64,000 nucleotides of DNA, from positions 37,027 through 101,026 of IMG/VR virus record IMGVR_UViG_3300043120_000083; one strand, 5' to 3'. This DNA is from a virus (taxonomy: Duplodnaviria; Caudoviricetes). Shown one piece after another: positions 11,136-52,193 of the stretch (its first letter is position 1; each line of letters opens with the position of its first letter). Both the position numbers and the translations under genes were made by a program. Below the pieces are notes generated by a model. That model saw only the letters and a list, made by a program, of their open reading frames with translations. It had not been told where the DNA came from and did not search any database.

Positions 11136-11197
11136 TTAAGTGTTAGTAGTTTAAGAAAGGGGTGGTTTAAATAACTACCCTTTTTGTTTTGTAAAAA

Positions 11198-11218
11198 CAT
11201 ATAAAAGTTATATGTTTG
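11198..11218 (+). promoter_or_regulatory. Putative promoter: CATATAAAAG-N3-TATGTTTG
   Basis: Exact TAnnTTTG -7 element with the recurrent upstream box and TTTTG further upstream. Confidence 0.65.
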
Positions 11219-15531: not shown

Positions 15532-16482
15532 ATGAAACTTTTAAAAATATCAGCAATTATAGCTTCAATATTTTCAGTAATTTTTTCTCTAAGTATTGTT
15601 TTTAATCTTAAAGAGTTTGTTGCTCCCGGTGTATTTACCTTCTCTACTATATTTGTTACCCTTCTGGTTATCTTCAATGAATGGGTGAAAGTAGGAGAAC
15701 TAAGGAAACGTTATTGGGGAAAGAAATCTTCACTAACTATCATTATTATCACTTTCATTTTTTCTTTTGCAATGTCAACAACCGGGATTTACCTTTGGGT
15801 GAACCAAACACAGGAAATTGATATTGAAATTAATGATAGTTTAAGTAAGGAAAAGTTAGATATTGAAGAAAAGTACAATCAAAAACTTGATTCAATCGAC
15901 AACCTCCCTAAAGGTAGTGAATACAAAGAAGTTCTCGAACAAATAGAGTATTGGAAAGACCGTTCTCCTGCTAATTTACAAGAAAGGCAAATGATTCGTG
16001 AAAATATAGCGGATTTAGAGACGGAAAAGAATAATCTGTACAAATCCTTCATTGAATATAGATCCGGCCTTAAATCAAGGCTAAACAATCAAAAACAGGC
16101 TGAATTAAGCTATATTGAAACCCAAGCCAGAGGAGAAGTAAAGAAATTGAATAAAAATGATTTTCTCTCCACTATTTTCTTCTTGATGGTAGCCTTCACA
16201 GAGTTCGTTATCATATTCATACAATACCGAATTAGTGTCTTTTATACAGAGGAACAAAGGAATGTGATAGCAATGGTAAGAGACTTTGAATTAAGAAACC
16301 TTGATACAGTTCATATAAACAAAGTAAAGTATAGTAAACTTCACGCAATTGAAGATTTTGAAGAAATAAAACTGTTGTACAATTTATTAATAGAAGTTGG
16401 TTCTTTGGATGAGACTGGAATGATGAAAACAGGAGCCACAAATAAGATTAAGAATTACTATTCCCAGATAAATAAATTTTAA
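15532..16482 (+). CDS. Membrane protein with coiled coil
   Basis: Three N-terminal hydrophobic segments, a coiled region and a fourth transmembrane segment. Confidence 0.7.
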   Translation: MKLLKISAIIASIFSVIFSLSIVFNLKEFVAPGVFTFSTIFVTLLVIFNEWVKVGELRKRYWGKKSSLTIIIITFIFSFAMSTTGIYLWVNQTQEIDIEINDSLSKEKLDIEEKYNQKLDSIDNLPKGSEYKEVLEQIEYWKDRSPANLQERQMIRENIADLETEKNNLYKSFIEYRSGLKSRLNNQKQAELSYIETQARGEVKKLNKNDFLSTIFFLMVAFTEFVIIFIQYRISVFYTEEQRNVIAMVRDFELRNLDTVHINKVKYSKLHAIEDFEEIKLLYNLLIEVGSLDETGMMKTGATNKIKNYYSQINKF

Positions 16483-16512
16483 ATTCCCATATAAAAGATA
16501 TTAATTTGCCGT

Positions 16513-17844
16513 ATGAATTACGTTTTAAGAGATTATCAAGAAAGGGCAGTTCAGGATGGATTAAACTTCTTCCGTTCTAAAAGCAAAAAGAATGGGTATA
16601 TGGTGCTTCCTACCGCAGCAGGGAAATCAATTATCGTTGCTAATATAGCTAAACAACTGAATACCAACGTTTTAGTTTTACAACCCACCAAGGAGCTTTT
16701 ATTTCAGAACCATGAAAAATTTATTTCATACGGCTATGATGCTTCAATCTACTCAGCAAGTTTTGATAGCCGGGAAGTAGGACAAGTGACTTTTGCAACG
16801 ATAGGGAGTATCTACAAGAAACCTGAATTATTTAAAGATTTTCATTATATCATCATTGATGAGTGCCATTTAGCTTCCCCGGACGATAGCTCAATGCATA
16901 AAAAGTTTTTTAATGAATTGAAAGTTAAGGTTTTAGGGTTAAGTGCGACACCATTTAGGCTGAAAAGCTACAACTTCCCAACCCGTCACTCTAAGTTAAA
17001 CTTTCTTGACCGAATGAGGCCAAAGATTTTTAGTGAACTGGTTCATGTTACTCAGATTCAAGAAATGACAGAAAGAGGTTACTGGGCACCTCTGGGATAC
17101 ATTAGTAAGCCTTTTGACCGTTCTAAGCTTAAAGTAAATTCAACCGGAGCAAACTACACAGATGATTCTATAAAACAAGCTATGATTGAGCAGGATGTTG
17201 TTCAACAGGCTTACGAAATGGCTTTGATATTAAAGAAAGAAGGTAGGAAGAAGATTTTAATTTTCATGCCCGAAATAGCAATGGCTGAAGAGCTTGCTGA
17301 AATGTTAGGGGTTAATGCTGTAAGCAGTAAAACAAAGAAAAAGGAAAGGGAAGAGTATATTAATAATTTTAAGGCTGGAATTGATTTTGCTATTATAAAC
17401 GTTAATGTGTTGGCTGTTGGATTTGATGATCAAAGAATAGATGCAATAATAGATGGTAAACCCACTATGTCTCTGGGTATTTATTATCAGAAGTATGGGA
17501 GAGGGGTGAGGGTTGATTTATCCACTAATCCGGTTAAGCATGATTGCCTGATTGTTGATTTGGTAGGTAACTACGAAATGTTTGGCAAAATAGAAGATTT
17601 CATAATAAAAAAGAATGCAATAGGCAAATGGGCTTTGTTTTGTGGAGATAAGCAACTAACAAATACAGAACTTGTAAAGGATAAAAATGTAAACCTTGAA
17701 GATGAAATAATGGGGTTTGGTAAATATAAAGGAGAGCCTTTCAGGTTCATACCTAAAAGTTACTGGAGATTTATTCGAGACAACTTCAAAAGAAGTGCAG
17801 AAAATGAGAAGTTATTTAATTATATAGAAACTATTGAATTGTAG
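16513..17844 (+). CDS. Superfamily 2 helicase (RadD/UvsW-like)
   Basis: PTAAGKS, DECH, SATP and QKYGRG motifs, with a C-terminal FGKYKG domain. Confidence 0.9.
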   Translation: MNYVLRDYQERAVQDGLNFFRSKSKKNGYMVLPTAAGKSIIVANIAKQLNTNVLVLQPTKELLFQNHEKFISYGYDASIYSASFDSREVGQVTFATIGSIYKKPELFKDFHYIIIDECHLASPDDSSMHKKFFNELKVKVLGLSATPFRLKSYNFPTRHSKLNFLDRMRPKIFSELVHVTQIQEMTERGYWAPLGYISKPFDRSKLKVNSTGANYTDDSIKQAMIEQDVVQQAYEMALILKKEGRKKILIFMPEIAMAEELAEMLGVNAVSSKTKKKEREEYINNFKAGIDFAIINVNVLAVGFDDQRIDAIIDGKPTMSLGIYYQKYGRGVRVDLSTNPVKHDCLIVDLVGNYEMFGKIEDFIIKKNAIGKWALFCGDKQLTNTELVKDKNVNLEDEIMGFGKYKGEPFRFIPKSYWRFIRDNFKRSAENEKLFNYIETIEL

Positions 17845-18152
17845 GCAAATGAATGATATGATAAAAGAAATAGTTGAGCGTAAACTAAGTTATAATAAAA
17901 AACAATTGCAGAAATTTATAGATGTAGGTAATAAATCTGCAATTCGTGACTATGAAGTAAGGTGTCATACATTAGAGGATATACTTGAAGATGCAGACGA
18001 AGCGAATGAAGGTCAACAACCAGGCAGCAACTGCAATATTACCGCATGTTAACGTTTCGGTTTGCCCTAAATGCGGTTGTAATAAAATTACTGGAGATGG
18101 AACGAAAAGCTGGTGTCAAAATGAAGAATGTGACTTTGTGGAGGCAGACTGA
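17834..18152 (+). pseudogene. Distal cassette gene, apparently frameshifted: 72-aa ORF plus a startless 34-aa zinc-ribbon module
   Basis: Removing one T at ~18040 gives SNCNIPHV fused to VNVSVCPKCGCNK...WCQNEECDFVEAD* (18048-18152). Confidence 0.5.
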
Positions 18153-18153
18153 G

Positions 18154-18250
18154 CGTTAACGTCCCGGCTTGTATGTGCCGTGCAGGCCGCACACAGTAAA
18201 TTTTCACGGCACTAACTTAACAAGCATGGCATATTACAAGCTTGTTAGAA
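18154..18250. repeat. attC-like site A
   Basis: CGTTAAC, arm 18167-18183, 40-nt loop, arm 18224-18241, GTTAGAA. Confidence 0.85.
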
Positions 18251-18969: not shown

Positions 18970-19098
18970 TTCTAACGTTGAGTATATGATTTCGGTGGCG
19001 ATTGATTGCAGGACTTTTCGCATACCGACTAACTAACAAGACTGCACAGTGGTTAAATTCGACACCTTAACGCCACTGAATTATATACATTATTAGGT
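18970..19098. repeat. attC-like site B
   Basis: TTCTAAC, arm 18982-19000, 70-nt loop, arm 19071-19088, ATTAGGT (ATT in place of GTT). Confidence 0.85.
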
Positions 19099-19173: not shown

Positions 19174-19914
19174 ATGAAATATATGGGAAGTAAAAACAGA
19201 ATTGCAAAGCACATTTTACCTATAATGCTAAAATATAGAACACCTGAAATGACTTGGGTAGAACCTTTTGTTGGCGGTGCAAATATGATTGATAAGGTTG
19301 AGGGTAAAAGAATAGGTGGAGAATACAATAAGTATATTGCCGAAATGTGGAAAGCACTTGAAGCAGGATGGATTCCAAGAAGCGACTATACGAAGGACGA
19401 TTACTACAACATAAAGGCGAATATGGATAGAAACCCTGCTGAAGCGGGATATGTTGGGATTGCAGTAAGTTATTGTGGTAAGTGGTTTGGTGGATATGCT
19501 GGACTTTGCGACAATAAAAGCCGTGGGCCTGTTGACTACCAAAAACAGGCATACAACAACTTAATAAAGCAATTGCCAAATATTAAAGGTATTAAATTTA
19601 TACATAGTAGCTACCAAGACTTAGAAATACCACCAAATAGCCTTATTTATTGCGATCCTCCTTATGAAAGTACAACAAAATACAAAGACGACTTTAACCA
19701 TGCTGAATTTTGGCAATGGTGTAGAGACAAATCAAAAGAAGGACACACCGTATTTGTGAGTGAATATAATGCTCCAGATGATTTCTACTGCATTAAAAAG
19801 GTACAAACAAATACGCAACTTGGAAATGGCTGCCAGACAGGAAGCCAAAATAAGTGCGATAAACTTTTTACCCCAATGGCTGCGATAGCAGACAAAGAGC
19901 GTGGGCTTTTTTAA
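19174..19914 (+). CDS. Cassette gene, Dam/D12-class DNA adenine methyltransferase
   Basis: YMGSK, EPFVGG and YCDPPY motifs. Confidence 0.88.
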   Translation: MKYMGSKNRIAKHILPIMLKYRTPEMTWVEPFVGGANMIDKVEGKRIGGEYNKYIAEMWKALEAGWIPRSDYTKDDYYNIKANMDRNPAEAGYVGIAVSYCGKWFGGYAGLCDNKSRGPVDYQKQAYNNLIKQLPNIKGIKFIHSSYQDLEIPPNSLIYCDPPYESTTKYKDDFNHAEFWQWCRDKSKEGHTVFVSEYNAPDDFYCIKKVQTNTQLGNGCQTGSQNKCDKLFTPMAAIADKERGLF

Positions 19915-19965: not shown

Positions 19966-20246
19966 ACCTAACGGTAAATGCAAGGGTATGTGCTGCCTTG
20001 AAAACTGTACAAAAGTAGATACGAGTAAATAACGATTAAATAATTAAGCGATGGCAAAAATTAATGAATTTGAGATAAGCATGGTTTGTTATAATGAAGA
20101 TAACAAATACACATTAGAAGAAATAAACGATATGCTTGTAGAATGGGCTGAAAGTAAAGATATATACTTAGGTGGCTCTGTTAAACCGTGTGCGCCGGAG
20201 GAAACTTCGGACGAGAGCGCAGCATTACCTTTGCATGGTGTTAGCC
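19966..20246. repeat. attC-like site C (large loop containing a gene start)
   Basis: ACCTAAC, arm 19978-19996, 222-nt loop, arm 20219-20236, GTTAGCC. Confidence 0.8.
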
Positions 20247-20365
20247 AACAACGTGAACTGTTATTGGCTTTTGCTAAATGGGAGTACGAAAGTGCAGAAT
20301 TTGACGACACTAACGAATACTTAGTTGACAAGTTTTTGGAAGAAAAAGCCAATAATTGTGGCTAA
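20051..20365 (+). CDS. Cassette gene starting inside the site C loop
   Basis: Codon 64 (Val) is the GTT at 20240. The stop TAA overlaps the TAAC of site D. Confidence 0.7.
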   Translation: MAKINEFEISMVCYNEDNKYTLEEINDMLVEWAESKDIYLGGSVKPCAPEETSDESAALPLHGVSQQRELLLAFAKWEYESAEFDDTNEYLVDKFLEEKANNCG

Positions 20366-20492
20366 CGTCAAACTTGTATAAAATGGCGGGGATATGTAGC
20401 ACTGACGTATCAACCCGGCATAAACCTTAAATAACAGTGCAAGCGGGCTAAAAAGTCACCACAACCCCGCTTTTTTATACAAATTGTTGTGG
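20360..20492. repeat. attC-like site D
   Basis: GGCTAAC, arm 20374-20391, 73-nt loop, arm 20465-20482, GTTGTGG. Confidence 0.85.
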
Positions 20493-20767: not shown

Positions 20768-20861
20768 CCACAACGGTACGGCAATATGATTAGTTGCCAC
20801 ACCACAGACTTTGAAATTTAGTAATAATTTGACAGGCAATTAATTATATTGCTTGTCATAA
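20768..20861. repeat. attC-like site E
   Basis: CCACAAC, arm 20781-20798, 36-nt loop, arm 20835-20852, GTCATAA (GTC in place of GTT). Confidence 0.85.
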
Positions 20862-21064: not shown

Positions 21065-21075
21065 TTTTTATTTGT

Positions 21076-21105
21076 TTATAACTATTATATATAAATATTT
21101 ACCTT
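21076..21105 (-). other. attI-like primary recombination site
   Basis: The last body ends in TTATAAC with no hairpin, followed by TATTATATATAAAT, directly upstream of the integrase. Similar sequence at 39391-39412. Confidence 0.6.
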
Positions 21106-21118
21106 TAAACATTTGATT

Positions 21119-21928
21119 ATGAATATAAAACACAAATCAACATTAGGAAAATTTGAAAAATATCTTAACCTTAAAGGATATTCTAAAAGGACTATTGATA
21201 TGTATATTCATTACACAAAAGAATATATTAATAGTTTTAATAAGCCAGCCATACATTTAACAATTAAAGATTGTCAGAATTATATAGAATCATATAAATT
21301 TTCTTCTAAATCTCAACAAAACCAAATTTATTCATCTTTAAAGGCATACTATAAAAGTGTGTTGAATATTGATCTTTCACATAAAATATTTTTAGAACGT
21401 CCCAGAAAAGAAAAACGTCTTCCACAAATAATAGAGAAAGAATACCTATTGTCCTGTATCAATAATATCAAAAATTTAAAACACAAGTCAATAATTTCTT
21501 TAGGGTTTTCGGTAGGATTAAGAGTTTCTGAGGTTTGTAATTTAAAGATTGAAGATATTGATTCAAAAAGAATGATTATTAATATAAGGCAAGCTAAAGG
21601 GAGAAAAGATAGGGTTGTGCCCTTATCTCAGAATATACTTAATCTTTTAAGGGAATATTATAAACAATACAGACCAAAAACTTATTTATTTAACGGGCAA
21701 AATTCAATCAAATATTCTCCAACTTCCTGCAATAAAATAGTAAAGAAATATATTGGGGAACAATATCATTTTCACCAATTAAGACATTCATCCTTCACCT
21801 CTCTTTTAGAATCAGGAACAGATTTAAGGATAATACAAAAACTTGCTGGTCATCAAAATTCCAAAACTACAGAACTTTATACACATGTATCAAATGAGAC
21901 TCTTTCTAAAATAAGCCTTCCTATTTAA
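21119..21928 (+). CDS. Tyrosine recombinase, integron-integrase-related
   Basis: YSKRT..Y and SQQNQ..SSL N-terminal domain, RPRKEKRLP, GLRVSE, KGRKDR, HQLRHS, IQKLAGH, TTELYTHV. Catalytic residues R-K-H-R-H-Y are intact. Confidence 0.93.
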   Translation: MNIKHKSTLGKFEKYLNLKGYSKRTIDMYIHYTKEYINSFNKPAIHLTIKDCQNYIESYKFSSKSQQNQIYSSLKAYYKSVLNIDLSHKIFLERPRKEKRLPQIIEKEYLLSCINNIKNLKHKSIISLGFSVGLRVSEVCNLKIEDIDSKRMIINIRQAKGRKDRVVPLSQNILNLLREYYKQYRPKTYLFNGQNSIKYSPTSCNKIVKKYIGEQYHFHQLRHSSFTSLLESGTDLRIIQKLAGHQNSKTTELYTHVSNETLSKISLPI

Positions 21929-31553: not shown

Positions 31554-31640
31554 TTTATGTTTGCCAGTTACATATAAAAGTATTTAATTTGGACTTTATC
31601 TAAGAAATAAAAAGGAATTACTAACTAAAAACCAAAAATC

Positions 31641-39026: not shown

Positions 39027-39115
39027 AACTTGACTCTCTATTTTGTATTTCAATATAAAAGACTTTAATTTGCTTGTGATAAATGAAACGTTAAAAGAAC
39101 GAATGTGGCACTTAT

Positions 39116-39246
39116 AGCTAACGGTTGCAGATATGCCCAGTTTGGGATTAAATAGTAGAAACTTTAAATAATAGACAAAATGAATAAAAATGTAGAAACT
39201 TTAAATGAAACACAGAACCCCAAACTGGGCATATCTGATGTTAGCA
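39116..39246. repeat. Orphan attC-like site F
   Basis: AGCTAAC, perfect 19-bp arms 39128-39146 / 39219-39237, GTTAGCA. Confidence 0.85.
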
Positions 39247-39389
39247 ACTGTACTTGCGGTAAAGAAAAAAGATACTGCAAAGGTTGCTTATGCAATGTAA
39301 CTGATACAATGTTTTGCTACTGTGGTGAATTTCCACTTACAAAAGAAAGCACTTATACAGATGATGACCTTGAAGCAATGAATGTATAG
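39180..39389 (+). CDS. Cys-rich cassette gene starting inside the site F loop
   Basis: Codon 21 (Val) is the GTT at 39240. CTC, CKGC and CYC motifs follow. Confidence 0.65.
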   Translation: MNKNVETLNETQNPKLGISDVSNCTCGKEKRYCKGCLCNVTDTMFCYCGEFPLTKESTYTDDDLEAMNV

Positions 39390-39487
39390 TTGCTAACTCT
39401 CATATATAAAATCAAACCTTTAGCTAATTATATCACAACAACTTACTCAAACAAATTTTAAAGATTCATTTTAAAACCAACAAACCT

Positions 39488-42101: not shown

Positions 42102-42911
42102 ATGATTCAAGATAACACAATAACAAGAGAAGACTTTGAAAAGAGCGCACGTTTGAATGACCTCGAAGTCTTTACCGAACAAGAAGTGAATGCGTGGCTT
42201 TCGGACAAGAAGAAACTAATTGAGAAGTCAGAAGTAGATGAACTTGACGAAATAGAAAAGGGAGAGTTGAACGACTTCATTATTGATAGCAAATCCCTGA
42301 ATAAGGTAGTAGTGATTGAAGCAGACCTCACTAAATCAGTTATGTTTTACCGCCCTTCTCAGGTAAAGTGGGACAAAGATGAAGAAGGCAACCTAATGAA
42401 AGCACGGAGTGGTGTATATAAGGACACTCCATATAATCGCAAAAAAGGTGTTGTGGGTATGAAGTATGGAGTTTCTAAGGAAGGGAAGAAGGGAACTGAG
42501 AAGAAAGGGAAAGATATGAAAAAACCAACCATGAATAATTTGGATTGGGGTAAAACAACAGAAGAAAGAAACAGTAACTTAGATAAGTATGAATCTTTAA
42601 AGACAGAAGATGAAAAGGTTAAATTTTTGAATGAATTAAAAGGTAAACCAGAAGCTGGAGAGAAGAAAGAGGGGAAGGAAGAGAAAGAAACTAAAGGTGG
42701 TGAAGATTCATCTAAGGAAGAGGTGAAAGAATTAAAAACATTATCTCCAGATAAACCTTTAGATTCACAATTAAAAGAATTAACTGGCGATGGGTTTGAA
42801 ATAGGAAAGTTTCACAATGAAGGAAGTAAACCAGATTCTCCACTAAGACCAACAGGCGTTTTAATTCATGATAAAACGGGCAAAAAATTTAAAGTGCCTC
42901 CTAAAAATTAA
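42102..42911 (+). CDS. Putative internal head protein with RSGVY motif
   Basis: KARSGVYKDTPYNRKKGVVGMKYG and several EK[S/G] sites, at the start of the virion module. Confidence 0.55.
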   Translation: MIQDNTITREDFEKSARLNDLEVFTEQEVNAWLSDKKKLIEKSEVDELDEIEKGELNDFIIDSKSLNKVVVIEADLTKSVMFYRPSQVKWDKDEEGNLMKARSGVYKDTPYNRKKGVVGMKYGVSKEGKKGTEKKGKDMKKPTMNNLDWGKTTEERNSNLDKYESLKTEDEKVKFLNELKGKPEAGEKKEGKEEKETKGGEDSSKEEVKELKTLSPDKPLDSQLKELTGDGFEIGKFHNEGSKPDSPLRPTGVLIHDKTGKKFKVPPKN

Positions 42912-45782: not shown

Positions 45783-46529
45783 ATGAAATTTGAAGAAGAG
45801 ATAAATAATTATCATAAAGAAAGAAAAGATTTTATTAAAAAATCTTTTGATTACAGTTGTGATAATTTAATAGAAAAAGCAAGAAGTGGTGTGTACAAAG
45901 ATACTCCTGAAAATAGAAAATTGGGAAGAGTTGGTATGAAGTATGGAGGAAAGAAAGAAAAGCCTACCAAAAACATAAAAAAAGAAGATCATAAAGGAGA
46001 ACCTTTATCTTATAAACTTAGTGAAGATCACGAATATTTTGTAAGATTTTCAGACCATATTGAAGAGGATTTGAAAAGAGGATGGAGTAGTTGGAATTTT
46101 GGAGGGGATGGCGTGGAAGCTGAATCTGCTTATGATTTAGGTAACGAGATTAAAGAGATTAAAGAAAATTTAGATGAAGGGGAAGAAACAGAATATAGTA
46201 TTTCTGGATTTGATATTTTGATTGATGAGAACATTAAGATAGATATTGATTATGATTCTGTCAGTATAAATAATGGGGAATATGAAATAAAAGAACTTTA
46301 CGATGGGTACTGGGTACTTGTTGATAACGTTAATTCTCCCGGCGAATTGTCATCCCATAAAGTTGATGATGATGATTTAGATGATATGGATAATTTAGGA
46401 GAGTTAGTTAACTATGTTGAAAGTAAGGAGTCTAAATTTGATGGCACAGGGGACGGGGAGTCATTTGATGCTTCAGAAGCAAGAGTTGTTTACTCTAAAG
46501 GTAATATGCATATTTTAGAAGTAGGTTAA
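45783..46529 (+). CDS. Putative internal head protein with RSGVY motif and acidic domain
   Basis: IEKARSGVYKDTPENRKLGRVGMKYG. Confidence 0.55.
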   Translation: MKFEEEINNYHKERKDFIKKSFDYSCDNLIEKARSGVYKDTPENRKLGRVGMKYGGKKEKPTKNIKKEDHKGEPLSYKLSEDHEYFVRFSDHIEEDLKRGWSSWNFGGDGVEAESAYDLGNEIKEIKENLDEGEETEYSISGFDILIDENIKIDIDYDSVSINNGEYEIKELYDGYWVLVDNVNSPGELSSHKVDDDDLDDMDNLGELVNYVESKESKFDGTGDGESFDASEARVVYSKGNMHILEVG

Positions 46530-49580: not shown

Positions 49581-52193
49581 ATGATATTAAAACTGCGTAG
49601 ATTATTAGGCCTTGACAATAAGCAAGAAAAAGTAGAAAACTACTCTGAATTGCACAAATCCCTAATGGGTTTAAACGAACGTATTGACGAAATAGCAGAG
49701 GATTTCACTGTAAAAAATGAGAACTATAAACAATTACTCAAATCTAAAGGGTTAAGTGATGATATAGCTAAGTCAGTACAAGTACGGCATATTAACTTTG
49801 TGGAGTCTCACAAGAAAGAAATTCATGAAGTTCTAATGAAACGTAAAGAAATAAAAAGTAAGTGTGACAAACTATTGTCAGACCCGGAAATAAGCAAAGC
49901 AGTAAAAGAAATAGAATTTTTCGACAACCTTAAAAATAAATACAAAAACAAAGAAATAGGTTTACGAGAGTATGACCTAATATTGAAAGCAAAAACAGGT
50001 AAAACAAAATATTCAGATATTCTTGTTTACGATAAGGACGGTAAGTTATTATTAGTTCAACGTGACCAACACGATAATAACGGCAGTAAGTGGGGAGTTC
50101 CCGGAGGCCACGTAGATACAGGAGAAGAGTTTTTAGAAGCAGCACAAAGAGAATTGTTTGAAGAAACAGGTATTTGGGTAGATGAATTGGAAGAGATAGC
50201 TGTTTACGACAAAGAAGGTAAAGAGATTCACTATTTCAAGGTAGATTTAAAAGAAGAAACTCAAGTTGTAGTTCAGAACAAAGAAGGTCAAGATTACAAG
50301 TGGATAGAATATACAGAATTGGAAGATATAGAAATGCCTTTCAATATGAAGGAGAATTTGTATAAGGTTCTTGGGTTTGAGGAAAAGGAAGTAAAGATAA
50401 TTAAGGCTGTTAGTTCAGGACAGATAAGCAAGGAATTAGGGGAGGGGTTGATTGAGAAAGCGAGAAGTGGAGTGTATAAAGATACTCCAGAAAATAGGAA
50501 GAAAGGAAGAGTTGGTCAGAAGTATGGAAGTAATGTTGGAGAGAAAGGTAAAAAAGAATTGTTTGATGTAGAGACACAAAAAATGCCTGTAGGTAGAAGA
50601 GGTAGATTTATTGTGAAAACAAACACTAATCCGGCACAGACATATAAAGGAGTAAAAAATTATTTAGATAATAAAAATCAAGACTTTGATGTAAATTTTT
50701 CAAGAAGTACCTCCTCTATTTATGTGAAAACACAAGATAAAAATGGTAATGAGTATGATATAAGGATTGCTAATCATTCTAAAGCTATAGATTCTGTTGA
50801 AGAGTGGAAACCTATTGAATTTACCGATTTTAATAGTAAAAGTAATTCATTTGAAATTTCAATAGATACGTCAGCTGGGATAAGTGCTAAAAAATTAAAA
50901 GATATATTTGGTAATATTGAAAATTTACAATCACAAATATCAAAAATTGATTTGGATTTAGATCCAGAAGAATATTATTACAAAAATGATTATTCTAAAA
51001 TAAAGACACCTCTGTTAGAGAAAATAAACGGTGACGATTATGGGTTAGCATCAAATATGTTAGACACTTATATTGATGAATATAAGCGAGCTGATAAAAA
51101 ATTCAAGGAGTTTGGGAATAAAAAGAAATTAGAGAAAGAAAAGTTAGAACAAGAAGAAAATAAAAAAAAGTTTGAATTTGATTTATATGGCACAAAGTTT
51201 TCTTTTGATCCTCAATACAAAACAATAGATTTTGAAATAAACCACCTTAATAAGTTAAAAGAAAAAGAGTATAAACTTCCAAGAAGGGCTTTTAAGAGGT
51301 ATCTTGAAAGAGATTTAGGGAAACAATATAGCGAAGGACTGGTAAGCAAAGAAGAGGTACGGAATATAATCAAGAATAAAATAAAAGAAATTGAAGAAAC
51401 AGGTGAATTTAAGAAAAGTGAAGATTTATTAGAGTATTTATATATAAATGGGATTATATCTGAAGATATTCTTTTAAAATCTTTTCCTGAAGAAAAACAT
51501 TACCCCGGAGAAACAAAAGAGGAATACGGAGCCCACGAAGTTAAAGAATCACCTAAAAGAGAGAAAGAAGAAAAAGAACCCGGTGGTTATGAACATAAAC
51601 AAGCCCGTTCTAAAGAAGAGTTCAAAGAAAAAGAACATCTATGGGAAATGATTCAGGAACATGAGAGATTAATAAAAGTAATTTCTCCATTTGCTGACAG
51701 TAGCGATGCTGTAAAGGAAGAGTTGAAAATACAAAAGAAAGAACTAAAGGAATACAAAGAAAAACTGAATAAGATTGAAGATAAGGGGTTGAAAAAGGTT
51801 GAAGAAGATGAAGAGAGCATAGAAAAATCCCGTTCAGGTGTTTATTCAGACAACGCTGAAAACAGACGTTTAAAACGTGTAGGTAAAAAGTATGGAGAAT
51901 CCTCTAATCAAGAAGAAGGAAAACAGGGTAATGATAAAAAAGAAGATGATAAAGAATCCAAACCTAAACAATCAATAGAAGAATACGCTAAAAATGCGTC
52001 TCAGGAGGCATTAGAGAACGCTTCTAAAGGAAAAGATGAAGAGCTAAGGGTAGCAGCTAAAAAGGAGCTAAAACGTAGGGAAACGGAAGAAAATGAATCT
52101 GATCGTCCAGAAGAAGGTGTAAGTGGCGAAGCAGAAAAGAAGACGGGAGAAGAAAGCCCGTCTTCGGATAAGAAAGGGGAGAAAGATGAGTAA
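49581..52193 (+). CDS. Multidomain protein with a Nudix hydrolase domain and two RSGVY motifs
   Basis: Nudix box GGHVDTGEEFLEAAQRELFEETG. Motif copies at 50457 and 51825. Confidence 0.8.
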   Translation: MILKLRRLLGLDNKQEKVENYSELHKSLMGLNERIDEIAEDFTVKNENYKQLLKSKGLSDDIAKSVQVRHINFVESHKKEIHEVLMKRKEIKSKCDKLLSDPEISKAVKEIEFFDNLKNKYKNKEIGLREYDLILKAKTGKTKYSDILVYDKDGKLLLVQRDQHDNNGSKWGVPGGHVDTGEEFLEAAQRELFEETGIWVDELEEIAVYDKEGKEIHYFKVDLKEETQVVVQNKEGQDYKWIEYTELEDIEMPFNMKENLYKVLGFEEKEVKIIKAVSSGQISKELGEGLIEKARSGVYKDTPENRKKGRVGQKYGSNVGEKGKKELFDVETQKMPVGRRGRFIVKTNTNPAQTYKGVKNYLDNKNQDFDVNFSRSTSSIYVKTQDKNGNEYDIRIANHSKAIDSVEEWKPIEFTDFNSKSNSFEISIDTSAGISAKKLKDIFGNIENLQSQISKIDLDLDPEEYYYKNDYSKIKTPLLEKINGDDYGLASNMLDTYIDEYKRADKKFKEFGNKKKLEKEKLEQEENKKKFEFDLYGTKFSFDPQYKTIDFEINHLNKLKEKEYKLPRRAFKRYLERDLGKQYSEGLVSKEEVRNIIKNKIKEIEETGEFKKSEDLLEYLYINGIISEDILLKSFPEEKHYPGETKEEYGAHEVKESPKREKEEKEPGGYEHKQARSKEEFKEKEHLWEMIQEHERLIKVISPFADSSDAVKEELKIQKKELKEYKEKLNKIEDKGLKKVEEDEESIEKSRSGVYSDNAENRRLKRVGKKYGESSNQEEGKQGNDKKEDDKESKPKQSIEEYAKNASQEALENASKGKDEELRVAAKKELKRRETEENESDRPEEGVSGEAEKKTGEESPSSDKKGEKDE

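Follow-up and report, generated by a model that had tools for sequence, protein, structure and literature searches.

Integron attC sites have the architecture R''(..AAC)-L''-variable loop-L'-R'(GTT..), i.e., they are imperfect palindromes with unrelated stems, and the integron ORFs lie on the top strand before their attC site and are expressed from Pc. Qi et al. 2023 (PMC9892861) described clusters of attC sites "lacking an integrase" in virulent phages, among them Polaribacter phage P12002L, and demonstrated recombination of the site P12002L_attC2 by IntI1 at G|TT. For the most part, canonical attC sites do not encode protein, as an earlier reading made from the letters of this DNA (hereafter, the sequence-only reading) fairly stated, though ORF-11, ORF-18 and ORF-17 in attI1 and short ORFs inside the attC sites of class 1 integrons are known (reviewed in PMC8876359). 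ORF-11, ORF-18 and ORF-17 start inside the recombination site and cross its core, the GTTRRRY sequence giving a codon or a TAG stop; they are leader peptides of 11-18 aa which, via translational coupling, aid the expression of cassettes without an initiation region of their own. Fusions at integron cassette boundaries are also known (PMC8876359), and fused cassettes and aac(6')-Ib variants with foreign N-termini arise from attC loss or from the insertion context. In shufflons (Rci/sfx) and phage tail fibre invertases, near-identical repeated sites lie in inverted orientation, and site-specific inversion between them exchanges protein modules within a reading frame. Here we describe a phage locus that shares features with all of these systems, and in which the hairpin precedes the gene and contributes codons to it.

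The stretch analyzed (64,000 nt, hereafter the window) makes up the final 64 kb of one phage contig of 101,026 nt (GC ~33%), and the + strand carries essentially all genes, among them tailed-phage genes for the portal, major head protein, tail sheath, DNA polymerase, NAD ligase, helicases and ribonucleotide reductase. The whole 101-kb genome was scanned for AAC, a spacer and an arm, followed by the second arm, a spacer and GTT, ATT or GTC. The six best + strand matches genome-wide were exactly sites F, C, A, E, B and D (-37.8 to -25.3 kcal/mol). The window holds six sites at or below -25 kcal/mol and each of five shuffles none; the hairpins are far beyond chance. Apart from sites C and F, which are described below, they are site A (18154-18250, AAC at 18158, GTT at 18244), site B (18970-19098, AAC at 18974, ATT at 19092), site D (20360-20492, AAC at 20364, GTT at 20486) and site E (20768-20861, AAC at 20772, GTC at 20855), all on the + strand, and the arms of site E are homologous to a hairpin of Polaribacter phage P12002L. 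All six sites have the attC layout given above. Five of them lie within 2.8 kb, immediately 5' of a tyrosine recombinase gene. Over 7-14 nt, each site's right box and the left box of the site after it are reverse complements, and every cassette has complementary core sequences of this length at its two ends. The + strand folds clearly better than the - strand at sites A, B, C and E, because the mismatches there are G-T pairs. The spacers of the hairpins are asymmetric (5-6 nt vs 2-3 nt). MITE-like terminal inverted repeats were ruled out, because the stems differ among the sites and only the AAC/GTT boxes are common; intrinsic terminators were ruled out as well, because the hairpins have no T-run behind them, and so were DGR-type repeats, because the repeats are inverted rather than direct. 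An Rfam search of the array returned only a chance lncRNA match (E = 0.95), and a search of the INPHARED phage collection for close relatives returned only the methyltransferase, and nothing for the site F region.

Site C shows the arrangement most fully. Its left box, CTAAC (19968-19972, + strand), is the point where the homology with two other contigs, L021 and L022, starts, and its AAC (19970-19972) opens cassette C at the 5' side and is the predicted point of crossover (AA|C). After the spacer GGTAA comes the 19-nt left arm (19978-19996), identical in L021 and L022, which pairs with the 18-nt right arm (20219-20236) through G-T wobbles and one bulge. The terminal loop of 222 nt (19997-20218) consists of a leader of ~55 nt up to the start codon at 20051, and of the first 56 codons of the ORF; the leader is kept in three contexts, whereas the coding part of the loop is replaced. 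The right arm is translated as AALPLH(G) and is followed by the spacer GGT and the right box GTTAGCC (20240-20246), in which GTT is Val64 and AGC is Ser65, and which is complementary to GGCTAAC at 20360-20366. In the cassette body (20261-20355) the ends 20261-20275 and 20341-20355 are complementary (93%) and extend the pairing of the boxes, and the middle is variable among relatives. The CTAAC box that closes cassette C and opens site D (20362-20366) contains the stop codon TAA (20363-20365). Hence our reading agrees with the earlier claims that ORF 20051 (20051-20365, + strand, 104 aa) has about 56 codons in the 222-nt loop, and that the right arm encodes AALPLH with the GTT core as Val64. 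The ORF comprises an N-module (residues 1-47), a linker and a C-module that starts at the right arm. The N-module matches stand-alone proteins of 45-51 aa (42-57% identity), and residues ~53-104 are found behind many unrelated N-termini; the variable mid-body of the C-module keeps a protein-like pattern (W and [VI][DE]xF[LI]). An AF2 model based on the C-module alignment had a mean pLDDT of 61.8, with helices at residues 63-78 and 86-100 of the C-module and a poorly modelled N-module. Neither ORF 20051 nor ORF 39180 (see below) matched a Pfam family.

The recombinase gene (21113-21928, + strand) encodes an Xer/IntI-like protein of 271 aa with Phage_int_SAM_4 and Phage_integrase domains, and it carries the catalytic residues R, K, HxxR, H and Y. 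The best model was XerA_Arch (180.6 bits, cut-off 220), followed by the integron integrase model TIGR02249 (148.6 bits, cut-off 265), whose match falls in two stretches broken at residue 187; all Xer models score the protein below their curated cut-offs. When compared with solved structures, it aligned over its full length to XerA (4a8e) but only through residues 15-191 to IntI4 (2a3v), and its KGRKDRVVPL and HQLRHS motifs are only ~47 residues apart. Because the IntI4 alignment ends at residue 191 and that of XerA is full length, the recombinase is seen to be without the IntI-specific insertion near the I2 helix, the element that reads extrahelical bases. Between the array and the gene, the end of the last cassette (TTTATAAC) is joined to an attI-like sequence, TATTATATATA (21075-21093, + strand), with the motif AAC|TAYTATATAT. 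The sequence AACTNTNATATATA has just two copies in the window, against 0.03 expected: one closes the array (21080) and the other comes directly after cassette F (39395). Relatives of the recombinase with 39-71% identity were found in viral and metagenome contigs, and in all those with upstream DNA the start codon is preceded, at ~40-60 nt, by AAC|TAYTATATAT; to the left of this AAC the loci differ in sequence. Furthermore, six independent metagenome contigs (L002, L004, L023, L024, L027 and L035) begin 0-4 nt from it. Assemblers break contigs where the population is heterogeneous, and these contig starts suggest assembly breaks from cassette-array heterogeneity. We infer that AAC|TAYTATATAT acts as attI. 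Where upstream DNA is present, the same kind of hairpin lies 5' of the relatives on the same strand, with four hairpins in L001, two in L003, three in L039, and one each in L006, L031, L036 and L062. Among 185,579 species genomes the closest relative, from a Saprospiraceae MAG, is 41% identical and has a hairpin upstream too. The recombinase is apparently phage-specific. In another contig, a 69-aa fragment with a weak Phage_int_SAM_4 match (L019 3565-3774), at the right end of an array of six hairpins, may be a truncated recombinase.

At its left end, the array carries the palindromic box GTTAAC twice (18048 and 18156), 108 nt apart, and the first copy has no hairpin; this "cassette 0" (18048-18160) may be either a cassette or the left half of an original attI. 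DNA methyltransferases of the D12 and N6_N4 classes recur as cargo between hairpins (window 19174-19914; L016 5002-5700, which is P12002L; L012 1392-3185). Such cargo fits an anti-restriction role, as Qi et al. 2023 (PMC9892861) remarked. Elsewhere in the window, a coding repeat of 86 nt, 62-81% identical among its copies (42390-42475, 45867-45952, 50448-50533 and 51816-51901), is found in three or four neighbouring genes of the head region; it encodes a motif like ..ARSGVYKDTPENRK.GRVG.KYG and may be a targeting or processing motif shared by head-associated proteins.

Natural cassette variants indicate which unit moves. The DNA of family 2, defined by the body SCRC..IKEISKKRVKEL..YWSELQ and comprising 21 proteins, was aligned in five unrelated contexts, and the block of identity began at TAAC|G, took in the outer arm, the arm, GTTAGTTGT / GATGTTAGTTGT and the body, and closed with ACAACTAA; both flanks were unrelated. 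In contig L020 the family-2 end reads CTAA|A, and therefore the joint was placed between A and C. C-type cassettes, aligned in three contexts (the window, L021 and L022), share three blocks, namely CTAAC with the left arm and the ~55-nt leader up to the ATG, the right arm with GTTAGCC and the next 35 nt, and the final 25 nt, which close with GGCTAAC. Between these blocks, the mid-body and the coding portion of the loop are replaced, and no likeness extends beyond the two AAC boxes. A pair of near-identical hairpins in L003 is alike from ATAAC rightwards past GTTA, and not at all to the left. In addition, 6 of 24 arm pairs carry compensatory double changes when six F-type hairpins are compared. 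Because the conserved unit spans AAC to AAC and its flanks are unrelated, the hairpin and the body downstream of it form one cassette joined at AAC. The first of the two models offered by the sequence-only reading, in which crossover at the AAC side makes hairpin plus body one cassette and the site dual-coding, is thus supported by two cassette families; the attI-like junction by the recombinase, which is also at AAC, and the better folding of the + (coding) strand are further evidence for it. The phage site recombined by IntI1 can be read in the same way: P12002L_attC2 maps to L016 6549-6617, just 5' of the next gene, and since its R' box GTTAGGC is on the non-coding strand, its joint would be AA|C on the coding strand, with the primer sequences as interpreted here. 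P12002L_attC1 was not found in the 10.6-kb P12002L stretch.

Site F (39118-39246, + strand) lies apart from the array and has the best hairpin of the genome (-37.8 kcal/mol). It consists of CTAAC (39118-39122), the spacer GGTTG, two perfect arms of 19 nt each (39128-39146 and 39219-39237) around a 72-nt loop, the spacer AT, and GTTAGCA with the GTT at 39240. ORF 39180 (39180-39389, + strand, 69 aa) starts in this loop and reads the GTT as Val21, and so repeats the site C arrangement (PKLGISD-V21), as the sequence-only reading had it. The cassette ends at 39393-39408 with CTAAC followed by the attI-like TCTCATATATA. The hairpin is 95% identical to that of contig L008, and the DNA likeness to L008 (~95% identity) is confined to the segment between TAAC and GTTAG; starting with GTTAGCAAC, it is L010 and L012 that the window matches. 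Because the likeness to L008 ends at GTTAG and that to L010 and L012 takes over, ORF 39180 is recognized as a chimera in which a family-2 hairpin leader meets a family-1, Cys-rich body inside TGATGTTAG. The same leader, MNKNVET.NETQNPKLGISDVS, sits on an unrelated C-terminal body, that of family 2, in protein P0015.

The start codon in loop F is flanked by a 15-nt direct repeat, GTAGAAACTTTAAAT (39156-39170 and 39193-39207), whose first copy is kept in L008. A promoter-like repeat family, TTTG...ATATAAAAG..TTAATTTG, precedes gene blocks at 1728-1760, 11186-11218, 16476-16508, 31559-31591 and 39040-39072, and since the last copy lies directly 5' of site F, cassette F is placed between the promoter-like repeat and the next gene.

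Whether the starts in the loops are used was judged from two protein families, the 13 homologues of ORF 39180 (family 1) and the 21 of family 2. In family 1 the conserved Cys-rich core begins with VS-NCTCGKEKRYCKGC and has no Met until it is half over, and the leaders of ~20 aa vary. In family 2 the core begins with VS-CRC and has no usable internal start; the bodies are 82-100% identical and the leaders unrelated except for ..LNISDVS. The frame is open from the loop ATG in all 13 and all 21 homologues, counts that are biased by the content of protein databases, which hold open frames only, so that broken copies would escape notice. Because the conserved cores begin at Val-Ser without an internal start, initiation in the loop appears to be required, and translation from the in-loop ATG is probable on these grounds. 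The predicted junction peptides are ...SAALPLHGVSQQR and LGISDVSNCTCGK, and the predicted N-terminal peptides start with MAKINEFEISMV and MNKNVETLNE. An ORF with an in-loop ATG that reads through GTT was present in 14 of the 40 hairpins surveyed. As the N-terminal leaders show hardly any conservation, the peptides they encode may be dispensable.

The register of the cores with the genes behind them is less informative. ORFs 18265 and 20876 are indeed in register with the GTT/GTC core, both starting 21 nt after it, as had been claimed. A general rule was ruled out, since four of the six window sites (not B and D) and only one of the four sites in L001 are in register, and register alone is not significant, because GTTAG closes one of the three frames with TAG and sites B and D are out of register. 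The claim that the distal half-site would give SNCNIPH-V proved to mix two frames: ORF 17834-18052 reads ...SNCNITAC and, by codon count, stops at the TAA inside GTTAAC, and "..ILPHV" belongs to another frame. In L001 (1882-1977), the loop of the last hairpin holds the start of a 31-aa ORF, which is out of register where it passes through GTT and has its stop in TAAATG, overlapping the start of the next gene; this resembles translational coupling of the ORF-11 type.

The second model of the sequence-only reading, in which crossover at the GTT side swaps C-terminal modules in frame, would as a rule amount to classical polarity, i.e., the hairpin would belong to the upstream cassette, the + strand would cross over at G|TT, and leaders and bodies would be reassorted routinely. 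A + strand AAC...GTT with a gene upstream does resemble the textbook top strand of attC, family-2 bodies that are 100% identical bear very different leaders, and ORF 39180 joins a family-2 hairpin to a family-1 body inside TGATGTTAG, so that, from its DNA, it appears to be one natural product of this type. However, in five and in three contexts the downstream body keeps its outer arms and boxes, with the flanks diverging at both AACs, and a conserved hairpin is never found behind the family-1 body. The attI-like site and the recombinase are on the AAC side, the duplicate hairpins of L003 are alike past GTTA and not before ATAAC, and the leader differences fall in the inner loop, not at GTT. 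As a rule, classical polarity is therefore improbable. The model's expectation of one N-terminal part with different C-terminal parts was borne out once, by MNKNVET.NETQNPKLGISDVS on its two bodies with the break inside TGATGTTAG, and not by ORF 20051, whose N- and C-terminal parts do occur apart, yet with the breakpoint inside the loop and not at Val64. The breakpoints of two homologues, P0002 and P0036, were placed at the protein level only. Since the hairpin normally travels with its body, exchange at the GTT side would be an exception, and the join in ORF 39180 could come from a rare - strand crossover, which is conceivable at site F because this hairpin folds equally well on both strands, or could equally be the result of microhomology recombination. 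Loops are also swapped wholesale between cassettes with ~94% identical bodies while the arms keep pairing, and therefore the N-termini are replaced too. We know of no integron reaction that replaces loops wholesale, and neither this replacement nor hairpin F with two unrelated bodies is explained by crossover at AAC only.

Two further explanations would leave the hairpins or their ORFs without the roles proposed here. In one, the hairpins are mainly RNA elements for the control of translation or mRNA stability, and the modularity comes from ordinary homologous or illegitimate phage recombination. The wobbles on the transcribed strand are G-U-compatible, and coding-strand G-T wobbles fit an RNA hairpin equally well; the C-type start codon is in the loop behind a conserved leader of ~55 nt, a promoter-like repeat comes directly before site F, and attC stem-loops are known to modulate translation (PMC8876359). 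We consider this account unlikely, because it gives no reason for AAC/GTT boxes that are invariant although the stems are unrelated, for cassette ends that are complementary, for the close association with a tyrosine recombinase and an attI-like site, for the contig breaks at AAC, or for the recombination of the P12002L site by IntI1 (PMC9892861), but RNA and recombination roles could coexist. In the other, the ORFs are not translated from the loop starts, the open frames being by-products of a conserved site in AT-rich DNA that were taken up by gene callers. The poorly conserved leaders, the short ORFs without a Pfam match, the mediocre AF2 model (pLDDT 62) and the restriction of databases to open frames would all be accommodated by such by-products, whereas cores conserved at the protein level that start at the box without an alternative start would not. 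In a T4-like phage, a relative of family 1 is encoded as an ordinary gene without hairpin or boxes, the N-module of ORF 20051 belongs to a genuine protein family, the variable mid-body of its C-module keeps a protein-like pattern, and by our own calculation ~50 random codons at this GC stay open only ~2% of the time; the absence of loop translation is accordingly a very unlikely explanation.

When the locus is set against the described systems, the likeness to integrons is found in the unrelated stems with conserved AAC/GTT cores, in the complementary cassette ends, and in the array next to a tyrosine recombinase and an attI-like junction; with the phage attC clusters, or CALINs (PMC9892861), it shares the DNA methyltransferase cargo and the P12002L hairpin homologous to site E. 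It differs from integrons in that the recombinase is XerA-like and without the IntI-specific insertion, with the nearest relative in the 185,579 species genomes only 41% identical, and in that the genes lie on the folding strand, with the hairpin 5' of the gene, in an array that points toward the recombinase. Moreover, the loops reach 222 nt and hold start codons and coding sequence, and the spacers are asymmetric. Like ORF-11, ORF-18 and ORF-17, the phage ORFs start inside a recombination site and cross its core, but the phage loop start would initiate the cassette's own protein, with the arm and the core coding. In-frame fusion at a boundary, with different N-terminal ends, is common to the fused cassettes and to the pair of ORF 39180 and P0015, whereas the phage junction lies at an intact GTT core in a functional-looking hairpin. 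Unlike the sites of shufflons and invertases, the phage sites are unique and directly ordered, and repeat searches (17-23 kb, and across the window) did not find inverted near-identical repeats flanking alternative segments.

We conclude that 19972-20365 is probably a complete cassette of a phage-borne, integron-like system, with an attC-like hairpin at its 5' end, a short body, AAC on both sides, and dual coding. The cassette genes would lie on the folding strand, the counterpart of the integron "bottom" strand, and because of this the recombination hairpin would precede the gene rather than trail it. If the + strand is read as the bottom strand, the order of cassettes, attI and recombinase would be classical, and the cargo genes alone would be inverted with respect to the site. 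The gene would lack a start of its own in some cassette families, and initiation would take place at an ATG in the terminal loop; from there the ribosome would read across the 3' arm, then the spacer and GTT core (Val-Ser), into the body, and terminate at or just before the next CTAAC box. Because the reading frame crosses the arm and the GTT core, the same nucleotides would be under both hairpin/core and codon constraint. The variable loop would supply a hypervariable N-terminal leader or, in ORF 20051, a captured protein module of ~48 aa. The Xer/IntI-like recombinase encoded at 21113-21928 is the candidate catalyst, and it would join the folded + strand at AA|C, the predicted bond of cleavage, with the attI-like AAC|TAYTATATAT. 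It is conceivable, if on balance rather doubtful, that the loop is a dedicated, rapidly exchanged "N-terminal slot", and that the same recombinase occasionally crosses over at the GTT side and thereby fuses leaders in frame to foreign bodies. If this were true, the site would supply a start codon and a swappable leader or captured domain, and the cassettes would diversify proteins as well as gene content.

Phage attC clusters (PMC9892861), read-through of the ORF-11 type and fusions at cassette boundaries (PMC8876359) were already known. What appears to be new is the inverted polarity of gene and site, the loops with real starts and coding sequence, the dual coding of arm, core and body ends, and the linkage to an Xer-like recombinase without the insertion. 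Integrons are treated as devices that shuffle genes, with recombination sites that are non-coding spacers behind the genes, and this phage relative has the opposite polarity; it offers a natural example of DNA under two constraints at once, one from its fold as a recombination substrate and one from its reading frame. This would explain small phage proteins in which near-identical short blocks (arm, core and ends) surround unrelated segments, and it implies that cassette exchange can create chimeric proteins. The results also suggest that Xer-like recombinases of a kind missed by current integron finders may serve the "integrase-less" attC clusters of virulent phages.
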